DNA from: an uncultured Acidobacteriota bacterium
Lineage (GTDB): Bacteria > Acidobacteriota > Vicinamibacteria > Vicinamibacterales > SCN-69-37
Direction of reading: 5' to 3'
Assembly: GCA_963798795.1 (NCBI GenBank)
Contig: CAWCUZ010000001.1
Coordinates: 1,556,099-1,620,098 of the forward strand
DNA: 64,000 nucleotides
The notes beneath the pieces are model-generated. The model was not told the DNA's origin. It made no database searches and was given only the letters and a program-made list of their open reading frames with translations. This document shows positions 3,470-55,524 of this stretch, in pieces. The position numbers and the translations under genes are program-made. Positions within the stretch are counted from its first letter, which is position 1; each line of letters starts with the position of its first letter.

Positions 3470-3540
3470 GGATTTGGGATTTCGGGATTTGGCGATTTGG
3501 AGATTTGGAGATTTGGAGATTTGGGGAGATTTGAGGATTT
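3470..3540. repeat. Octamer tandem repeat (GGAGATTT)n
   Basis: About 8 imperfect copies; reverse complement of the 1153-1199 array. Confidence 0.9.
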
Positions 3541-21890: not shown

Positions 21891-21944
21891 GGATTTGGGG
21901 ATTTGGGGATTTGGAGATTTGGAGATTTGGAGATTTGGAGGTTT
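21891..21944. repeat. Octamer tandem repeat (GGAGATTT)n
   Basis: About 6 copies right after the pntB stop. Confidence 0.9.
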
Positions 21945-31399: not shown

Positions 31400-34006
31400 C
31401 CCACGGACGTCCCCGTCTACGAATCGGACGTCGTCCTCCGGGACGGGTCGACGCTGCACCTGCGGCTGGCCCGTCCCGAGGACGCCGCGGCGCTCGCCGC
31501 ACTCGGCCCGCCCATCGTCCCCCGCCACGGCGGCGCGCACGACGTCGTCCTGGTCGGTGAATCGGCCGGACGCGTGAGCGCGGCGGCGCTGTACAGCCGC
31601 AATCCCGTCGCGCCGGACCACGCCGAAATCGGCTTCGTGACCGCCCCGGCGTTCCAGGGACGCGGCATCGCCACGCGGCTGCTCGAGGCGCTCGCGGAGA
31701 TCGCGCGCCGCGAGCGCATCCACACCTTCGACGCGTTCGTCCCGCCCGAGGACGACCGGATGGTCCGGGTGCTGGTGGACTCGGGTTTCGGAATCGACCG
31801 GCGCGTCGACGCCGGCGCCGTGCACGTGGTGCTGTCGCTCGAGGCCACGCCGGGGTACGAGGAACGCGCGGCCGTCCGCTCCGAGGTCGCGGCCGGCGCG
31901 TCGATGCGCGTCTTCTTCGAACCGGCCAGCGTCGTCGTCGTCGGCGCCAACCGCGAGCGCGGCAAGATCGGCGCCGAGGTCCTGCACAACGTGCGGTCGG
32001 GCGGGTTCACCGGCCGGCTTGCCGCCGTGCATCCGTCGGCCGGGGAAATCGACGGCGTGCCGGCGTACCCGCGCGTGACGGACGTGCCGGGCGACGTCGA
32101 CCTCGCGGTGATCTGCGTGCCGGCCGAGCACGTGAACCTGGTCGCCGACGACTGCATCGCCAAAGGCGTGCGCGCGCTCGTCGTCATCAGCGCCGGCTTT
32201 GCCGAGATCGGCGCGACTGGCCGCGCGCGCGAGACCGCGCTCGTGGCGAAGGTGCGCGAGGCGGGCATCCGGCTGGTGGGCCCGAACTGCATGGGGCTGC
32301 TCAACACCGACCCGGCCGTCCGGCTGAATGCGACGTTCGCGCCGGTCAATCCGCCGGCCGGCAAAGTGGCGATGTCCACGCAGAGCGGCGCCCTGGGCCT
32401 CGCGATCCTGGACTACGCCCGACAGCTTCACATCGGCCTGTCCACGTTCGTGTCGGTGGGCAACAAGGCCGACGTGTCCAGCAACGACCTCATTCAGTAC
32501 TGGGCCGCCGATCCGCGCACCGACGTCATCCTGCTGTACGTCGAGAGCTTCGGGAATCCGCGCAAGTTCGGACAGATCGCGCGGCGGATCGGCCGGCGCA
32601 AGCCGATTGTCGCCGTCAAGTCGGGCCGATCGACGGCGGGCGCGCGGGCCGCGTCGTCGCATACGGGCGCGCTCGCGTCGAGCGACGTGATCGTCGAGGC
32701 ACTCTTCCGGCAGGCCGGCGTCATCCGCACGACGACGCTCGAGGAACTGTTCGACGTGGCGGCGCTGCTCGCCAATCAGCCGGTGCCGGCGGGCCGACGG
32801 GTCGCGATCCTGACGAACGCGGGCGGACCGGCCATCCTGGCGGCCGACGCCTGCGAATCGCAGGGGCTGGAACTGCCCGCGCTGTCGGCAGGGACGGTAT
32901 CGGAGCTGCGGTCGTTCCTGCCGCCCGCCGCCTCGGTCGGCAACCCCGTGGACATGATCGCGTCGGCCAGCGCCGAGCAGTACGGCCGCGCGCTGCGCGC
33001 GCTGCTGGCCGACGAGCGCGTGGACAGCGTGCTCGTCGTGTTCATCCCGCCGCTGGTCACGCGCGGCGACGATGCCGCGCGCCAGGTGCTCGCGGCCGCG
33101 GAGGGCCATGCCGGCAAGCCGGTGCTGGGCATCTTCATGTCGACGGAGAGCCCGGCCGACCTGCTCGCGCCGATTCCCTGTTTCATGTTTCCCGAGGCCG
33201 CGGCGGTGGCGCTCGCCCGCGCGGCGACGTACGGCGAGTGGCTGCGCGCGCCCGAGGGCGTGGTGCCGGCATTCGGCGACCTCGCCGAAGCGGTCGTCCG
33301 TGACCCGGTCGAGCGGGCGCTCGCGCGCGGCGGCGGCTGGCTGACGCCCGGCGAAGCCCAGCGGCTGCTCGTGAGCGCGCGAATCCCCGTGGCCGCCAGC
33401 GAGGTCGTGTCGAGCGAGGACGCCGCGGCGGCCGCGGCGGACCGCATCGGCTATCCCGTCGCGCTCAAAGCCATCGGCCCGGAGATCGTGCACAAGACGG
33501 AGGTGGGCGGCGTGCGCCTCGGGCTGGCCAGCGCGGACGACGTGCGCGCGGCCTGGCGGGAGATGCACGTCAGGCTGTCGGGCCTGATGACGGGCGGGCT
33601 GGTGCAGCAGATGGTGGCCGGCGGGGTCGAGATGCTGATCGGCGTCACACAGGACCCGACGTTCGGGCCCGTGCTCGCGTGCGCGTCGGGCGGCACGATG
33701 GCCGAGCTGACCGCCGACAGCGAATTCCGCCTGCACCCGCTCAGCGACCGCGACGCCGCCGCGATGATCGACGGCCTGCGCGGTGCCCGCCTGCTACGCG
33801 GCTTCCGCGGCGCCCCACCCGCCGACGAGGGCGCGCTCAGAGACGCCCTGCTGCGCCTGTCCGCCGTGGTCAGCCTCTGCCCCGAAATCGAAGAGCTCGA
33901 TATCAACCCGATCGTGGTCCGCCCCTCCGGCGCGCAGGCGCTGGACGTGCGCGTGCGCGTCGAGAAGATCAGGAGCAAGCCGCTGGCGCGCAGGGTGACG
34001 TACTGA
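31400..34006 (+). CDS. GNAT plus acyl-CoA synthetase (NDP-forming)-like fusion, protein acetyltransferase Pat type (start unresolved)
   Basis: DVVLRDGS, QGRGIAT, RLVGPNCMG, QSGALG, SVGNKADV, NAGGP, HKTEVGGV, ELDINP. Confidence 0.9.
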   Translation, partial: PTDVPVYESDVVLRDGSTLHLRLARPEDAAALAALGPPIVPRHGGAHDVVLVGESAGRVSAAALYSRNPVAPDHAEIGFVTAPAFQGRGIATRLLEALAEIARRERIHTFDAFVPPEDDRMVRVLVDSGFGIDRRVDAGAVHVVLSLEATPGYEERAAVRSEVAAGASMRVFFEPASVVVVGANRERGKIGAEVLHNVRSGGFTGRLAAVHPSAGEIDGVPAYPRVTDVPGDVDLAVICVPAEHVNLVADDCIAKGVRALVVISAGFAEIGATGRARETALVAKVREAGIRLVGPNCMGLLNTDPAVRLNATFAPVNPPAGKVAMSTQSGALGLAILDYARQLHIGLSTFVSVGNKADVSSNDLIQYWAADPRTDVILLYVESFGNPRKFGQIARRIGRRKPIVAVKSGRSTAGARAASSHTGALASSDVIVEALFRQAGVIRTTTLEELFDVAALLANQPVPAGRRVAILTNAGGPAILAADACESQGLELPALSAGTVSELRSFLPPAASVGNPVDMIASASAEQYGRALRALLADERVDSVLVVFIPPLVTRGDDAARQVLAAAEGHAGKPVLGIFMSTESPADLLAPIPCFMFPEAAAVALARAATYGEWLRAPEGVVPAFGDLAEAVVRDPVERALARGGGWLTPGEAQRLLVSARIPVAASEVVSSEDAAAAAADRIGYPVALKAIGPEIVHKTEVGGVRLGLASADDVRAAWREMHVRLSGLMTGGLVQQMVAGGVEMLIGVTQDPTFGPVLACASGGTMAELTADSEFRLHPLSDRDAAAMIDGLRGARLLRGFRGAPPADEGALRDALLRLSAVVSLCPEIEELDINPIVVRPSGAQALDVRVRVEKIRSKPLARRVTY

Positions 34007-34193
34007 GGTTCCGGGTTCGGAGTTCGGGGTTCCCGGGTTCGGTGCCGGGGTTCCCGGGTTCGGTGCCGGGGTTCCCGGGTTCGGTGCCGGCGTTCCCGGG
34101 TTCGGTGCCGGGGTTCCCGGGTTCGCTGTCGGGGTTCCCGGGTTCGGTGCCGGCGTTCCCGGGTTCGGTGCCGGGGTTCCCGGGTTCGCTGTC
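34007..34193. repeat. Left arm: 37-bp terminal inverted repeat plus 21-bp tandem repeat x8
   Basis: Unit GGGGTTCCCGGGTTCGGTGCC over 34026-34193. Confidence 0.9.
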
Positions 34194-34345
34194 GAGATTC
34201 CGGCTTCTCAGCGGGCGTATCGACATTCTGCCATTCCGCCCGCAGTCGAACGTCGCATGTTCTGCGACCGCTGCCGGCCATTTCCAAAGAACGGGCCCGT
34301 TTCGGGTCATTCACCGGCGGCACCGGTCGTGCTCTGAGACACGAC

Positions 34346-34774
34346 GTGGCGGCAGTGAAGAGCCATCGCGAACTGGAGGTGTGGAAACTCGCGGATCAAC
34401 TGCGCCGCGCCGTGCGGGATCTCACGGCGAAGCCATGTTTCACCCGGATGGTGAAGTTCCGCGACCAGCTCATGGAATCGGCCGAGTCCGGCTGTCCCAA
34501 CATCGCCGAAGGTTTTGCCCGTTTCTACCCGCGCGAGTTTGCGCGTTTCCTGCGGATCGCAAAAGGGTCCTTCGCTGAAGTGCCGGAACATCTGGATCGG
34601 GCCTTGGCCCTGGCCTTCGTCTCGCAGCGGGAGTACGAGGACGTGTGCAGTCTCTGCCACCGCGCCAGTGCTGCCGCGACCGCCCTGATCGTGTACCTCG
34701 AGGGCGCCGCCACGCCAAATCGAAGGACGCCTGAACATCGGCGGCGAACGCGGAACCGCGGCCCTGAACCCTGA
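34346..34774 (+). CDS. Four helix bundle protein (23S rRNA IVP/Avd-like family)
   Basis: SHRELEVWKLA...DQL..SA.S...NIAEGF.R...EFARFLRIAKGS.AE. Confidence 0.9.
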   Translation: MAAVKSHRELEVWKLADQLRRAVRDLTAKPCFTRMVKFRDQLMESAESGCPNIAEGFARFYPREFARFLRIAKGSFAEVPEHLDRALALAFVSQREYEDVCSLCHRASAAATALIVYLEGAATPNRRTPEHRRRTRNRGPEP

Positions 34775-34859
34775 ACCCCGGAACCGAACCCGGGAACCCG
34801 GAACCGAACCCGGGAACCCGGAACCGAACCCGGGAACCCCGAACTCCGAACCCGGAACC
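34762..34859. repeat. Right arm: GAACC tandem repeats plus 37-bp terminal inverted repeat
   Basis: 34823-34859 is the exact reverse complement of 34007-34043. Confidence 0.9.
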
Positions 34860-34862
34860 GCG

Positions 34863-35612
34863 CTATCTCTTGAACAGCGACCCCACAAACGCCAGCGCCG
34901 CCAGCGTAACGATGACCGGCCCGGTTTCGCGGTGCAGCCAGCCGGCGAGCGCGGTGCCGGCGACGATCGCAACCGCCGCGATGGCGGCCGAAATCACCAG
35001 CATCTGCGTGAGGTTCTGCGACAGGCGCTTGGCGGTCGCGGCGGGGATGATCACGAGCGATCCCATCAGCAGCACCCCGAGGTACCGCAGGCCGAGGGCG
35101 ACGGTCAGCGCGAACGCCTGCAGGTACAGCAGATTCAGCCGGCGGTGGTCGATGCGCGCGGTGCGCGCGATGTCCGGCGACACCAGCATGATCACGAGCC
35201 GGTGCTTCTGACGGATCACGAAGGCCACGACGACCGCGGCCCCCACAAGGCCGACGACCGCCTCCGGCCACTCGAGCGGCGCGGTGCGGCCGAACAGCGC
35301 CTCGACCAGGTCCTCCCCCGATGCCATCAGGCTGCCGATCGCGAGCGCCACCGAAAAGACGACGCCGATGACCGTTTCGGTGGCGAGCCGCGTCTGGTGC
35401 TCGAGCGCCCAGACGATCAGCGCGCCGAACGACAGCATCGCCGCCGCGCCGAACAGCGGATTGACGTGCAGCGCCAGCGCGATCCCGATGCCCGGCAGCG
35501 CCACGTGCGAGAGCGCGTCGGCCGCGAGCGTCATCCGCCGCATCACCGCAAAGCAGCCGATCAGCCCCGCCGCCACCGCCACCGACGTCGCCAGCAGCAG
35601 GTCAACGGTCAT
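34863..35612 (-). CDS. Metal (Zn/Mn) ABC transporter permease
   Basis: VMRRMTLAADALSHVALPG, GVLLMGSLVIIPAATA. Confidence 0.9.
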   Translation of the reverse strand: MTVDLLLATSVAVAAGLIGCFAVMRRMTLAADALSHVALPGIGIALALHVNPLFGAAAMLSFGALIVWALEHQTRLATETVIGVVFSVALAIGSLMASGEDLVEALFGRTAPLEWPEAVVGLVGAAVVVAFVIRQKHRLVIMLVSPDIARTARIDHRRLNLLYLQAFALTVALGLRYLGVLLMGSLVIIPAATAKRLSQNLTQMLVISAAIAAVAIVAGTALAGWLHRETGPVIVTLAALAFVGSLFKR

Positions 35613-41622: not shown

Positions 41623-41730
41623 GTTCAGAGGTACAGGGTTCAGAGGTTCGGTCCCGGGTTCGGAGTTCCGGGTTCGCGAACGGCTGAACCTCGAACCCGG
41701 AACCGAACCTCTGAACCCTGAACCCTGAAC
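41623..41730. repeat. 108-bp imperfect palindrome of GGTTC/GAACC repeats
   Basis: Two 54-bp arms centred at 41676/41677; shares CCGGGTTCGGAGTTC with 34011-34025. Confidence 0.85.
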
Positions 41731-46404: not shown

Positions 46405-46429
46405 GAAGGCAGAAGGCAGAAGGCAGAAG
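46405..46429. repeat. Heptamer repeat (GAAGGCA)x3
   Basis: Fills the intergenic gap between the Fe-S and Mo subunits. Confidence 0.75.
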
Positions 46430-46900
46430 TCAGGGGCCCGATGTCGCGTTGCTGACCTTGCGAATCGCCGCGACGATTCTCGGAAACGTTCCGCATCGGC
46501 AGACGTTGCGATCCATCACACGCGCAATGTCGGCCTCCGTCGGACTCGGATTGTTCTGGAGCAGGCTGATGGCCGCCATCACCATTCCCGGCGTGCAGTA
46601 GCCGCACTGGAAGGCCTCGGCGTCGAGAAACGCCTGCTGCACCGGGTGGAGCTTGCCGCGCACGGACACCGCTTCGATCGTCGTCACGCGCTTGCCGTTG
46701 ACGGCGCCGAGCCGCGTCACGCACGAGCGCGTCGCCTGCCCGTTGACGAGCACGGTGCACGCGCCGCAATACCCCTCGCCGCAGCCGAACTTGCTGCCGG
46801 TGAGGTTCAGCTCGTAGCGGAGGACGGAAAGCAGACTATCGCCGGGCTCACCGGAAACGTGGTGGGTCTGGCCGTTGACTTCGAAGACGAACTCGGCCAT
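46430..46900 (-). CDS. (2Fe-2S)-binding subunit (IorA/CoxS-like)
   Basis: KFGCGEGYCGACTV, QCGYCTPG, CRC. Confidence 0.93.
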   Translation of the reverse strand: MAEFVFEVNGQTHHVSGEPGDSLLSVLRYELNLTGSKFGCGEGYCGACTVLVNGQATRSCVTRLGAVNGKRVTTIEAVSVRGKLHPVQQAFLDAEAFQCGYCTPGMVMAAISLLQNNPSPTEADIARVMDRNVCRCGTFPRIVAAIRKVSNATSGP

Positions 46901-55068: not shown

Positions 55069-55524
55069 TCAGGCCTCAGGCACTAGTCTTCTGTCTTCTG
55101 CCTTCTGCCTTCTGCCTTCTGCCTCTCCTTCTGCCTTCTGCCTTCTGCCTTCTGCCTTCTGCCTTCTGCCTTCTGCCTTCTGCCTTCTGCCTTCTGCCTT
55201 CTGCCTTCTCCTCGGTCCCCGCCGGCCGGCCTCGAGCTCGGCAGCCAGTTTCAGGCGCCAGAGGGCGTCGTCCCACATCTGTTCGAGCACACGTCCGACC
55301 GGCCCGAGCGCCTTGCGCCGAGCCCGGTAGAAGCGCTGGCGGCCGGCCGCCCGCGCCTCCACGAGGCCCGCCTCGGCCAGGGTCCGCAACTGGAGTGACA
55401 CGGCGCCGAAGGTCACGTCCGGCATGGCCCGGCGAATCTCGCCCGCGCTCTGTTCTTCGCGCCACACCAGGCGCAGGATCTCGCGGCGGCGCGGTGAGGC
55501 GAGCAGGTCGAGGGCCGAGGGCAT
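55069..55524 (-). CDS. ArsR/SmtB family regulator with repeat-encoded tail
   Basis: [31 protein letters not shown]. Confidence 0.85.
55088..55208. repeat. Heptamer tandem repeat (TTCTGCC)n, about 16 copies
   Basis: Lies inside the ArsR 3' end and encodes RRQKAEG repeats. Confidence 0.92.

Follow-up and report, generated by a model that had tools for sequence, protein, structure and literature searches.

The locus under study occupies positions 34007–34859 of the window, the stretch of 64,000 nucleotides that we analysed, and fills the space between two convergent host genes. Upstream, on the plus strand, a gene with GNAT and ADP-forming acyl-CoA synthetase-type domains (31574–34006; Pfam and ORF list) ends with a TGA codon at 34004–34006, and a left arm begins at the very next base. 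Downstream, a right arm ends at 34859, 3 nt short of the stop codon of an ABC-3 metal transporter permease gene on the minus strand (34863–35612; Pfam PF00950, E 4.4e-50), whose TAG lies at 34863–34865. Both boundaries agree with the preliminary description of this DNA, and so does the terminal inverted repeat: in a script comparison, the 37 nt at the outer end of the left arm (34007–34043) are the exact reverse complement of those at the outer end of the right arm (34823–34859), with 37 of 37 bases matching. The inverted pairing extends inward past these outer segments (51 nt at 92%; with blastn, 89 nt at 93%). Each arm is a tandem array. For the left arm (34007–34188, plus strand), TRF reports a period of 21, 8.7 copies and 92% matches, and by eye the 21-mer consists of three heptamer-type subunits, GGTTCCC GGGTTCG GTGCCGG. 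For the right arm (34745–34859, plus strand), an array inverted with respect to the left one, it reports a period of 20, 5.7 copies and 82% matches or, alternatively, a period of 7. The tandem continuation of the terminal repeats was therefore rightly described, while the earlier figure of three 20-bp units on the right side counts the clean units only. A leader (34189–34345, plus strand) separates the left arm from the open reading frame; a conserved motif appears in it twice, as TTCTGCCA at 34226–34233 and as TTCTGCG at 34260–34266. An Rfam scan of 33800–35000 with E values up to 1 gave no match, and scans for consensus sigma-70 promoters and intrinsic terminators gave none either.

As first proposed, the sole plausible gene inside the arms encodes a four-helix-bundle protein, and there is no transposase among the listed ORFs. 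This gene (34346–34774, plus strand) codes for 142 amino acids with a predicted pI of 9.7 and matches PF05635 (E 1e-20, 74.3 bits against a cut-off of 33.8; no other Pfam family matched), TIGR02436 (E 4.8e-19, 68.6 bits against a cut-off of 24) and PDB chain 2gsc_A, the solved XCC0516 protein of Xanthomonas campestris with five chains (E 1.4e-6). The family assignment is thus sound, and the kinship that had been stated for it, with proteins of 23S rRNA intervening sequences (IVS) and with Avd, is in print (PMC4990558, PMC10053308). The protein lacks any known catalytic domain, and PMC4990558 describes the function of PF05635/S23p proteins as unknown. Basic character is general in the family, 34 of the 36 PF05635 proteins that we collected having a pI above 8. 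The Arg-rich C-terminal tail of the protein studied here is encoded within the inner part of the right arm, and such an overlap between four-helix-bundle ORF and right arm is common among cassettes.

The genome assembly (5.3 Mb in 12 contigs, 70% GC, 85.6% complete) contains seven PF05635 matches, and TIGR02436 recovers the identical seven; our own family HMM added one truncated fragment devoid of arms. Reading of the loci combined with a search for inverted partners revealed inverted tandem arrays on both sides of all seven genes, so that the survey of paralogues called for in the preliminary description does not refute it. In one of these cassettes, an insertion sequence (IS) splits the gene from its right arm, displacing the latter by 1.9 kb. 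Different loci have different arm units (GGTTC-type, GGTGCGG, CGATCGG-type, GAAGGCA, GGATTCAA and GATTTGGA), and no near-identical cassette copies with common termini were found among the seven. An automatic criterion for armed loci, demanding an inverted arm of at least 21 nt with periodicity of at least 0.6, selects four of the seven, the misses being a period-21 arm, a period-32 arm and the IS-split locus; under the same treatment, 2 of 600 random genome positions pass, one of them a RAYT-like locus. Among 29 loci from 30 related genomes, 23 have some inverted match and 17 pass the strict periodic criterion. The cassette between the acyl-CoA synthetase-type and permease genes is, therefore, one of seven IVS-type gene cassettes in the genome of this soil bacterium. 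An eighth candidate at C2:1201207, a helical ORF of 115 aa that has both the leader motif and an array on its left side, was discarded given an hhalign probability of only 0.7%.

The two arms of one cassette are 85–100% complementary and stand in register when counted from the outer end. Even so, between cassettes whose proteins are 58–61% identical, the sharing of arm 6-mers is just 0–0.1, implying that arms turn over much faster than the gene. Over all pairs, protein identity and arm 6-mer overlap are weakly correlated (Mantel r 0.24, a value reached by 0 of 2000 permutations). The complementarity kept inside each cassette points to selection for pairing or to copying from arm to arm, as judged from these sequence comparisons.

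Just inside the left arm, the cassettes carry a partly palindromic leader motif close to GCAG-N-TTCTGC(C/A)A, often in two copies 35–45 nt apart and always 5′ of the four-helix-bundle ORF. In four of six cassettes, TTCTGCC is found no more than 150 nt inward of the left arm, when 0.0074 would be expected per cassette, although this count was made post hoc. The motif is also present at two ordinary divergent promoter regions that have no arrays, so that it is probably a lineage-specific regulatory site and not a feature of the arms. The motif core is the reverse complement of the commonest array unit. A second small motif, GATAG, is found outside the arm, no more than 12 nt away and on the strand reading inward, at 6 of the 14 ends of cassettes (expectation 0.0036 per end, also post hoc) and is rare at gene-less arrays (6 of 145). 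An excess of TAG stops among genes running into arms did not reach significance (P 0.07). The constant side of the leader motif bears on the idea of an invertible switch, in which recombination between the arms would flip the gene with respect to outside promoters. Long, near-perfect inverted repeats around a gene that looks promoter-less would suit such a device, but no invertase gene lies nearby, the leader motif never changes side and the alternative orientation is absent from the thin, low-depth data at hand, which makes a switch scarcely credible.

The arms belong to a much larger population of repeats. TRF detects several hundred short-period arrays in the genome, grouped into few unit families, and 165 of the 392 arrays with a periodicity of 7–11 are matched by cassette arms, the counts for the seven cassettes being 60, 33, 23, 22, 14, 8 and 5; a further 27 of the 392 match an 11-mer family. 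An inverted partner lies within 4 kb of 78 of 799 arrays, often leaving a loop of 5–250 nt, and many of the arm-matching arrays are short-loop hairpins without a gene. One such gene-less hairpin, of the GGTTC type and with a 14-nt loop, was located by blastn of the TRF arrays in the window itself (41634–41730; C1:1597732–1597828), 6.8 kb downstream of the cassette with whose arms it shares its unit family. Many arrays sit at gene ends, a stop codon being within 18 nt of 100 of the 145 gene-less ones. This position, together with the slippage-prone nature of arrays and the unequal copy numbers of the arms, could suggest that we deal with intergenic filler, or with terminator-like hairpins produced by slippage, that contain a four-helix-bundle gene by coincidence. 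Against this stand the enclosure of all seven genes as compared with two of 600 random positions, the register of the arms from their outer ends and the near absence of arrays in relatives devoid of the gene (see below), and we regard coincidence as highly improbable.

Inverted arrays also enclose other things. A tRNA gene is found between them at C1:312086–312360; mscL, a VapBC-like pair and an IscU-like gene occupy other loops; and IS transposases lie between very long inverted GGTGCGG arrays at three loci, in addition to the IS inside one of the four-helix-bundle cassettes. As the arrays in question are of the arm families, the four-helix-bundle gene has no exclusive claim on the arms. These observations, as well as the unrelated arms around proteins that are 58–61% identical, are what would be expected under the main rival to our reading, namely that the hairpins spread alone, by slippage or otherwise, and serve as landing pads into whose loops four-helix-bundle genes, like the IS found here, preferentially insert or where they survive, in which case the arms would be local genome repeats external to the gene's own element. 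By contrast, the occurrence of seven genes out of seven in hairpins would then amount to an extreme target preference for a gene without a recombinase, and the common extension of the ORFs into the right arm also speaks against this model. Taking these points with those discussed below, we judge the landing-pad model unlikely, though it is the rival to be taken most seriously. In a test for one protein per repeat family, P was 0.026 but rose to 0.20 when two similar families were merged, so that this pattern is not firm.

The distribution of arrays in related genomes follows that of the gene. Restricting the TRF count to arrays with a score of 50 or more, 3.5 copies or more and a period other than a multiple of 3, we found 1 in 400 kb, 0 in 345 kb, 0 in 318 kb and 0 in 269 kb of four relatives without the four-helix-bundle gene, that is, 1 in 1.33 Mb, versus 4, 10 and 10 per 400 kb, or 24 in 1.2 Mb, in three relatives that possess it and that were sampled away from the gene; the density in the genome studied here is 227 in 5.32 Mb, or 42.7 per Mb. 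The genome samples are small and related genomes are non-independent points in such co-occurrence counts; the contrast is moreover confounded, because all four genomes without the gene also lack Y1_Tnp. The units themselves are matched to the genomes. When three-unit patterns taken from five cassettes were counted across 31 related genomes, three consecutive GAAGGCA units had 136 matches in the genome studied here as against 10 in the 30 others together; the arm unit of G007 had 50 matches in G007 and 0 elsewhere; that of G016, 48 in G016 and 1 elsewhere; and that of G022, which has only one PF05635 gene, 26 (spread over about 19 loci) in G022 and 0 elsewhere. The unit common to cassettes of G023 and G030 had 3 and 6 matches in these two genomes, respectively, and 0 in the other 29. 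Outside the genome or genomes in which a cassette bears them, the five arm units are thus nearly absent.

The linked absence of Y1_Tnp makes it necessary to consider mobilization in trans, in which the hairpins, as single-stranded DNA, would be moved by a Y1/HUH enzyme of RAYT type or by some other host enzyme, the four-helix-bundle protein being a passenger or an accessory. Three Y1_Tnp (RAYT-like) genes exist in the genome, two of them with REP-type flanks, and the four sampled array-poor relatives lack Y1_Tnp. Nonetheless, the two flanked genes lie between inverted copies of repeats of their own, different from the cassette arms (an 11-mer array in one case and 43–46-nt GTAG REPs in the other), and three relatives have armed cassettes and no Y1_Tnp match: G023 (17 PF05635 genes, 94% complete), G005 (3 genes, 99% complete) and G007 (8 genes, 64% complete), the last one with the 50 unit matches just mentioned. 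Mobilization in trans appears, accordingly, quite improbable.

A further case comes from a distant phylum, in Xanthomonas. In the supplement of PMC4692102, repeat 15, of the GGGAATC type, is placed at the start codon of XCC0516, which encodes the 2GSC protein. Scanning with a GGGAATC-type 28-mer yielded 21 loci, in 17 of which our own HMM finds an adjoining four-helix-bundle ORF between accB and accC. Both arms consist of four variant units in identical order, and the right arm stops at the ATG of accC; across the 14 loci where a script located the accC start, the right arm has a single variable position. Each of two complete Xanthomonas genomes has one PF05635 gene, orthologous to that of 2GSC, yet the arm-unit pattern has 386 and 331 matches in them, as compared with 5 and 4 for control patterns. 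The arms of the Xanthomonas gene are thus built of a unit that is found in genus-wide heptamer arrays. Extending the count to 61 genomes of the Xanthomonas family, at least 20 matches occur in 19 of 30 PF05635-positive genomes and in 5 of 31 negative ones (odds ratio 9.0, p 2e-4, medians 113 and 0), figures that concern related genomes and the pattern of one unit only; 11 genomes are PF05635-positive yet poor in the pattern. The five array-rich negative genomes indicate that arrays can exist without the gene, in agreement with a landing pad. This model also predicts matched units and co-occurrence as well as ours does, so that these two lines of evidence cannot separate them.

If transcribed across, the arms would pair with one another, and the long stem envisaged from the outset is indeed predicted: the folded RNA has an outer stem and a minimum free energy of −506.9 kcal/mol, as compared with −402.3 kcal/mol for 20 shuffled sequences (sd 8.3; z −12.7). 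Direct traces of movement were looked for in several ways. The permease orthologues of three relatives (64–67% identity) have different downstream neighbours, and in all of 80 metagenome loci that encode a homologue of the acyl-CoA synthetase-type protein (34–68% identity), tblastn at 1e-5 detected neither this four-helix-bundle protein nor the permease downstream. The synteny around the cassette is therefore not conserved in the relatives examined, and no exact empty allele can be defined. The 10 nt beyond each end of the cassette differ, revealing no target-site duplication. Three low-depth DNA sequencing runs from soil contained no piece across the cassette and no junction removing it. Because empty site, target duplication and second identical copy are all missing, we infer insertion from the way in which the cassette exactly fills the gap between two stop codons, from the location of its paralogues at unrelated sites, from the Xanthomonas copy inside accBC and from the equal layout of the elements in rRNA.

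We propose, with about even confidence, that the locus is a cassette of IVS-like type, with arms that pair into a long stem in RNA, and that among a family of dispersed hairpins it is the member carrying a gene, much as RAYT genes relate to REPINs. Gene and arms would constitute one inserted unit, occupying here the gap between convergent genes. In a transcript crossing it, the arms would pair into a dsRNA stem of about 90 bp, of the type that RNase III cuts; the stems of 23S rRNA IVS are cut by this enzyme (PMC4990558). The cassette would therefore be excised or looped out of the host RNA, which would insulate host transcripts and make the element tolerable both between genes and inside operons. 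The dispersed arrays would then stand to the cassette as REPINs stand to a REP-flanked RAYT gene, and the periodic units are probably bound by the basic four-helix-bundle protein, a pentamer in the 2GSC structure. We prefer this model to a landing pad because the rRNA elements presumably come equipped with arms: the ORF in 23S rRNA arrives with complementary arms and, in Coxiella, with heptamers (PMC4990558), and a pre-existing repeat hairpin would not be expected at rRNA sites.

The similarity of PF05635 proteins to Avd (PMC10053308) suggests another route, by which an Avd-like four-helix-bundle protein and a reverse transcriptase (RT) would copy the stem-closed RNA and the copy would reintegrate. 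The proteins are basic and the genome has two RT loci (C1:76492–77116 and C1:2110963–2111496), but neither adjoins any of the seven cassettes and no pair of template and variable repeats was seen; we hold retro-mobility to be very improbable.

Beyond the individual cassette, and as a tentative extension that we consider possible but doubtful, PF05635 proteins in general may bind nucleic acids periodically and with specificity for a unit, and may give rise to, and propagate, short-tandem-repeat hairpins of their own, such as the GGGAATC repeats of Xanthomonas and the arrays of the acidobacterium studied here; IVS proteins, IVS and the heptamer arrays of particular lineages would then be parts of a single selfish system with two tiers, comparable to RAYT and REPINs but lacking a recognisable transposase. 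A full-text search of the literature recovered no link between PF05635 proteins and flanking or dispersed tandem repeats outside rRNA, and neither the text of PMC4692102 on heptamer repeats nor a further paper on such repeats mentions the four-helix-bundle/23S-intervening protein family. New here are the arms around seven of seven paralogues, the presence of the arm units at gene-less sites, the co-occurrence of gene and arrays, the matched units and the Xanthomonas case. Together they join two open puzzles, the function of the four-helix-bundle family and the source of the heptamer repeats that abound in intergenic DNA, which is left unexplained in PMC4692102 and PMC4679880. There is also a consequence for annotation: if our reading is true, array-rich intergenic DNA is derived from elements and is not filler. 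Cassettes of this kind are found between operons and also inside them, as between accB and accC in Xanthomonas.

Several known systems resemble the cassette in part. Like MITEs, it has terminal inverted repeats, no transposase and an intergenic site; unlike them, it contains an intact conserved gene, its tandem-array arms differ between copies and no target-site duplication was seen. With Avd of diversity-generating retroelements (DGR), the protein shares a homologous small, basic four-helix-bundle fold (PMC10053308), but the cassette has no adjoining reverse transcriptase and no template/variable repeat pair. Because all seven cassettes lack a neighbouring RT, membership of their genes among DGR Avd genes was rejected. 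The arms taken alone are described by the class of long SSRs (Mrazek et al. 2007, as cited in PMC4679880), whose definition, tandem units of 5–11 nt that are longer than chance and mostly intergenic, they fit according to TRF; this class leaves unexplained the inverted pairing around one gene family. In the same vein, the heptameric SSRs of Xanthomonas and Nostoc, of which an Xcc genome has about 186 arrays, are intergenic tandem heptamers often arranged as convergent pairs (PMC4692102), which they have in common with the arms.

RAYT/REPIN systems and rRNA IVS offer the closest parallels. As in the former, inverted repeat copies flank a gene and recur elsewhere, often as inverted hairpin doublets (PMC3116915, PMC3337134), and the gene is single-copy in Xanthomonas and in G022. 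True RAYT-like examples of this layout, the two flanked Y1_Tnp genes out of three, exist in the genome studied here as well, which lends some support to the analogy. Unlike a RAYT gene, the four-helix-bundle gene lacks HUH/Y1 motifs, the Y1_Tnp matches of the genome lying elsewhere, and it has seven copies here, each with a unit family of its own; unlike REPINs, the repeats are tandem units of 7–8 nt and not REP palindromes. As in the 23S IVS of Coxiella burnetii and Leptospira (PMC4990558), a PF05635/S23p ORF is looped between complementary terminal arms, but our cassette lies between two protein-coding genes. An IVS within rRNA was rejected for this genome, whose 23S gene (C2:1260696–1263684) measures 2989 nt against a model of 2925 positions and has no large insert, so that all seven cassettes are free-standing. 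In Coxiella, the IVS combines an S23p ORF with a stem of 28 bp and with tandem heptamers (GACAGAT) in a number that varies among strains (PMC4990558). The cassette shares with it the presence of tandem heptamers within the element and departs from it in its arms, which measure 115–182 nt, as opposed to a 28-bp stem, and are themselves built of tandem units that are dispersed over the whole genome.

The cassettes, in which a PF05635 four-helix-bundle (4HB) gene lies between inverted tandem-array arms, have short motifs next to their arms. In most cassettes of this bacterial family, a partly palindromic leader motif, approximately GCAG-N-TTCTGC(C/A)A, is found on the inner side of the left arm, ahead of the 4HB open reading frame (ORF); the window cassette contains copies at 34226-34233 and 34260-34266. 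Reverse-complemented, the core of this motif gives the commonest array unit of the genome, and the motif is also present at two ordinary divergent promoter regions (C6:44589 and C7:282719; C numbers denote contigs of this genome). Of the 14 outer ends of the seven cassettes, 6 have the sequence GATAG no more than 12 nt away, on the strand that reads inward, as at window 34860-34869 (reverse strand), and at several cassette ends GATAG provides the TAG stop of the neighbouring gene.

The same types of repeats are scattered elsewhere in the window. A gene-less hairpin with a 14-nt loop (41634-41730) is built from the GGTTC-type unit family that forms the arms of the 34007-34859 cassette. Octamer arrays of CAAATCTC / GATTTGGA, whose family also forms the flanks of a different 4HB gene in this genome, occur as a mutually inverted pair 2.3 kb apart (1153-1199 and 3470-3540) and as a further array at 21892-21944. 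The commonest array unit of the genome, CTTCTGC / GAAGGCA, is represented by arrays of 17.7 copies (55088-55209) and 4.1 copies (46405-46433).

Inverted arrays also enclose genes other than 4HB. Two RAYT-like Y1 transposase genes (C3:24683-25597 and C1:2199531-2199815) are each surrounded by inverted arrays of their own repeat, an array of the 11-mer GGGTCAGACCA at one and classical GTAG-type REPs of 43-46 nt at the other. Very long inverted GGTGCGG arrays, with up to 47 copies, enclose IS transposase genes (C1:2376924-2379437, C2:1156662-1159398, C6:338276-340442 and C2:975400-977797), and one of these IS lies within a 4HB cassette, where it severs the 3' side of the 4HB gene; together, these arrangements suggest that IS insert into hairpin loops. 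Inverted arrays of cassette-type families likewise surround a tRNA gene (C1:312086-312360), mscL (C6:469122-469670), a VapBC-like pair (C6:314313-315369) and an IscU-like gene (C1:2363595-2364153).

In Xanthomonas and relatives (loci L256-L276), the cassette occupies a recurrent position, with the order accB-4HB cassette-accC and the accC start codon adjoining the right arm. Across the 14 loci where this start was located, the right arm has one variable position, unlike the short spacer next to the left arm, which is variable. In one Xanthomonas-family genome (G073), the backwards-read control pattern yielded 77 matches against only 12 for the forward arm-unit pattern, and this genome therefore contains another array family.

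Several loci resemble partial cassettes. At C2:1201006-1201551, a 115-aa helical ORF is accompanied by the leader motif and by a left array that begins 4 nt past the neighbour's stop; similarity of this ORF to PF05635 was not detectable and the right arm is absent. A gene-less hairpin with GTGATTT-type arms (C2:411350-411700), whose loop of about 290 nt holds the leader motif, may be a cassette after loss of its gene. An N-terminal part of a truncated 4HB gene, devoid of arms, lies at C1:2137162-2137386. Finally, a broken ORF comes after the leader motif at C6:180524-180760; its sequence has a putative resemblance to GxxExxY / PDDEXK_3 proteins, another family encoded in 23S rRNA intervening sequences.
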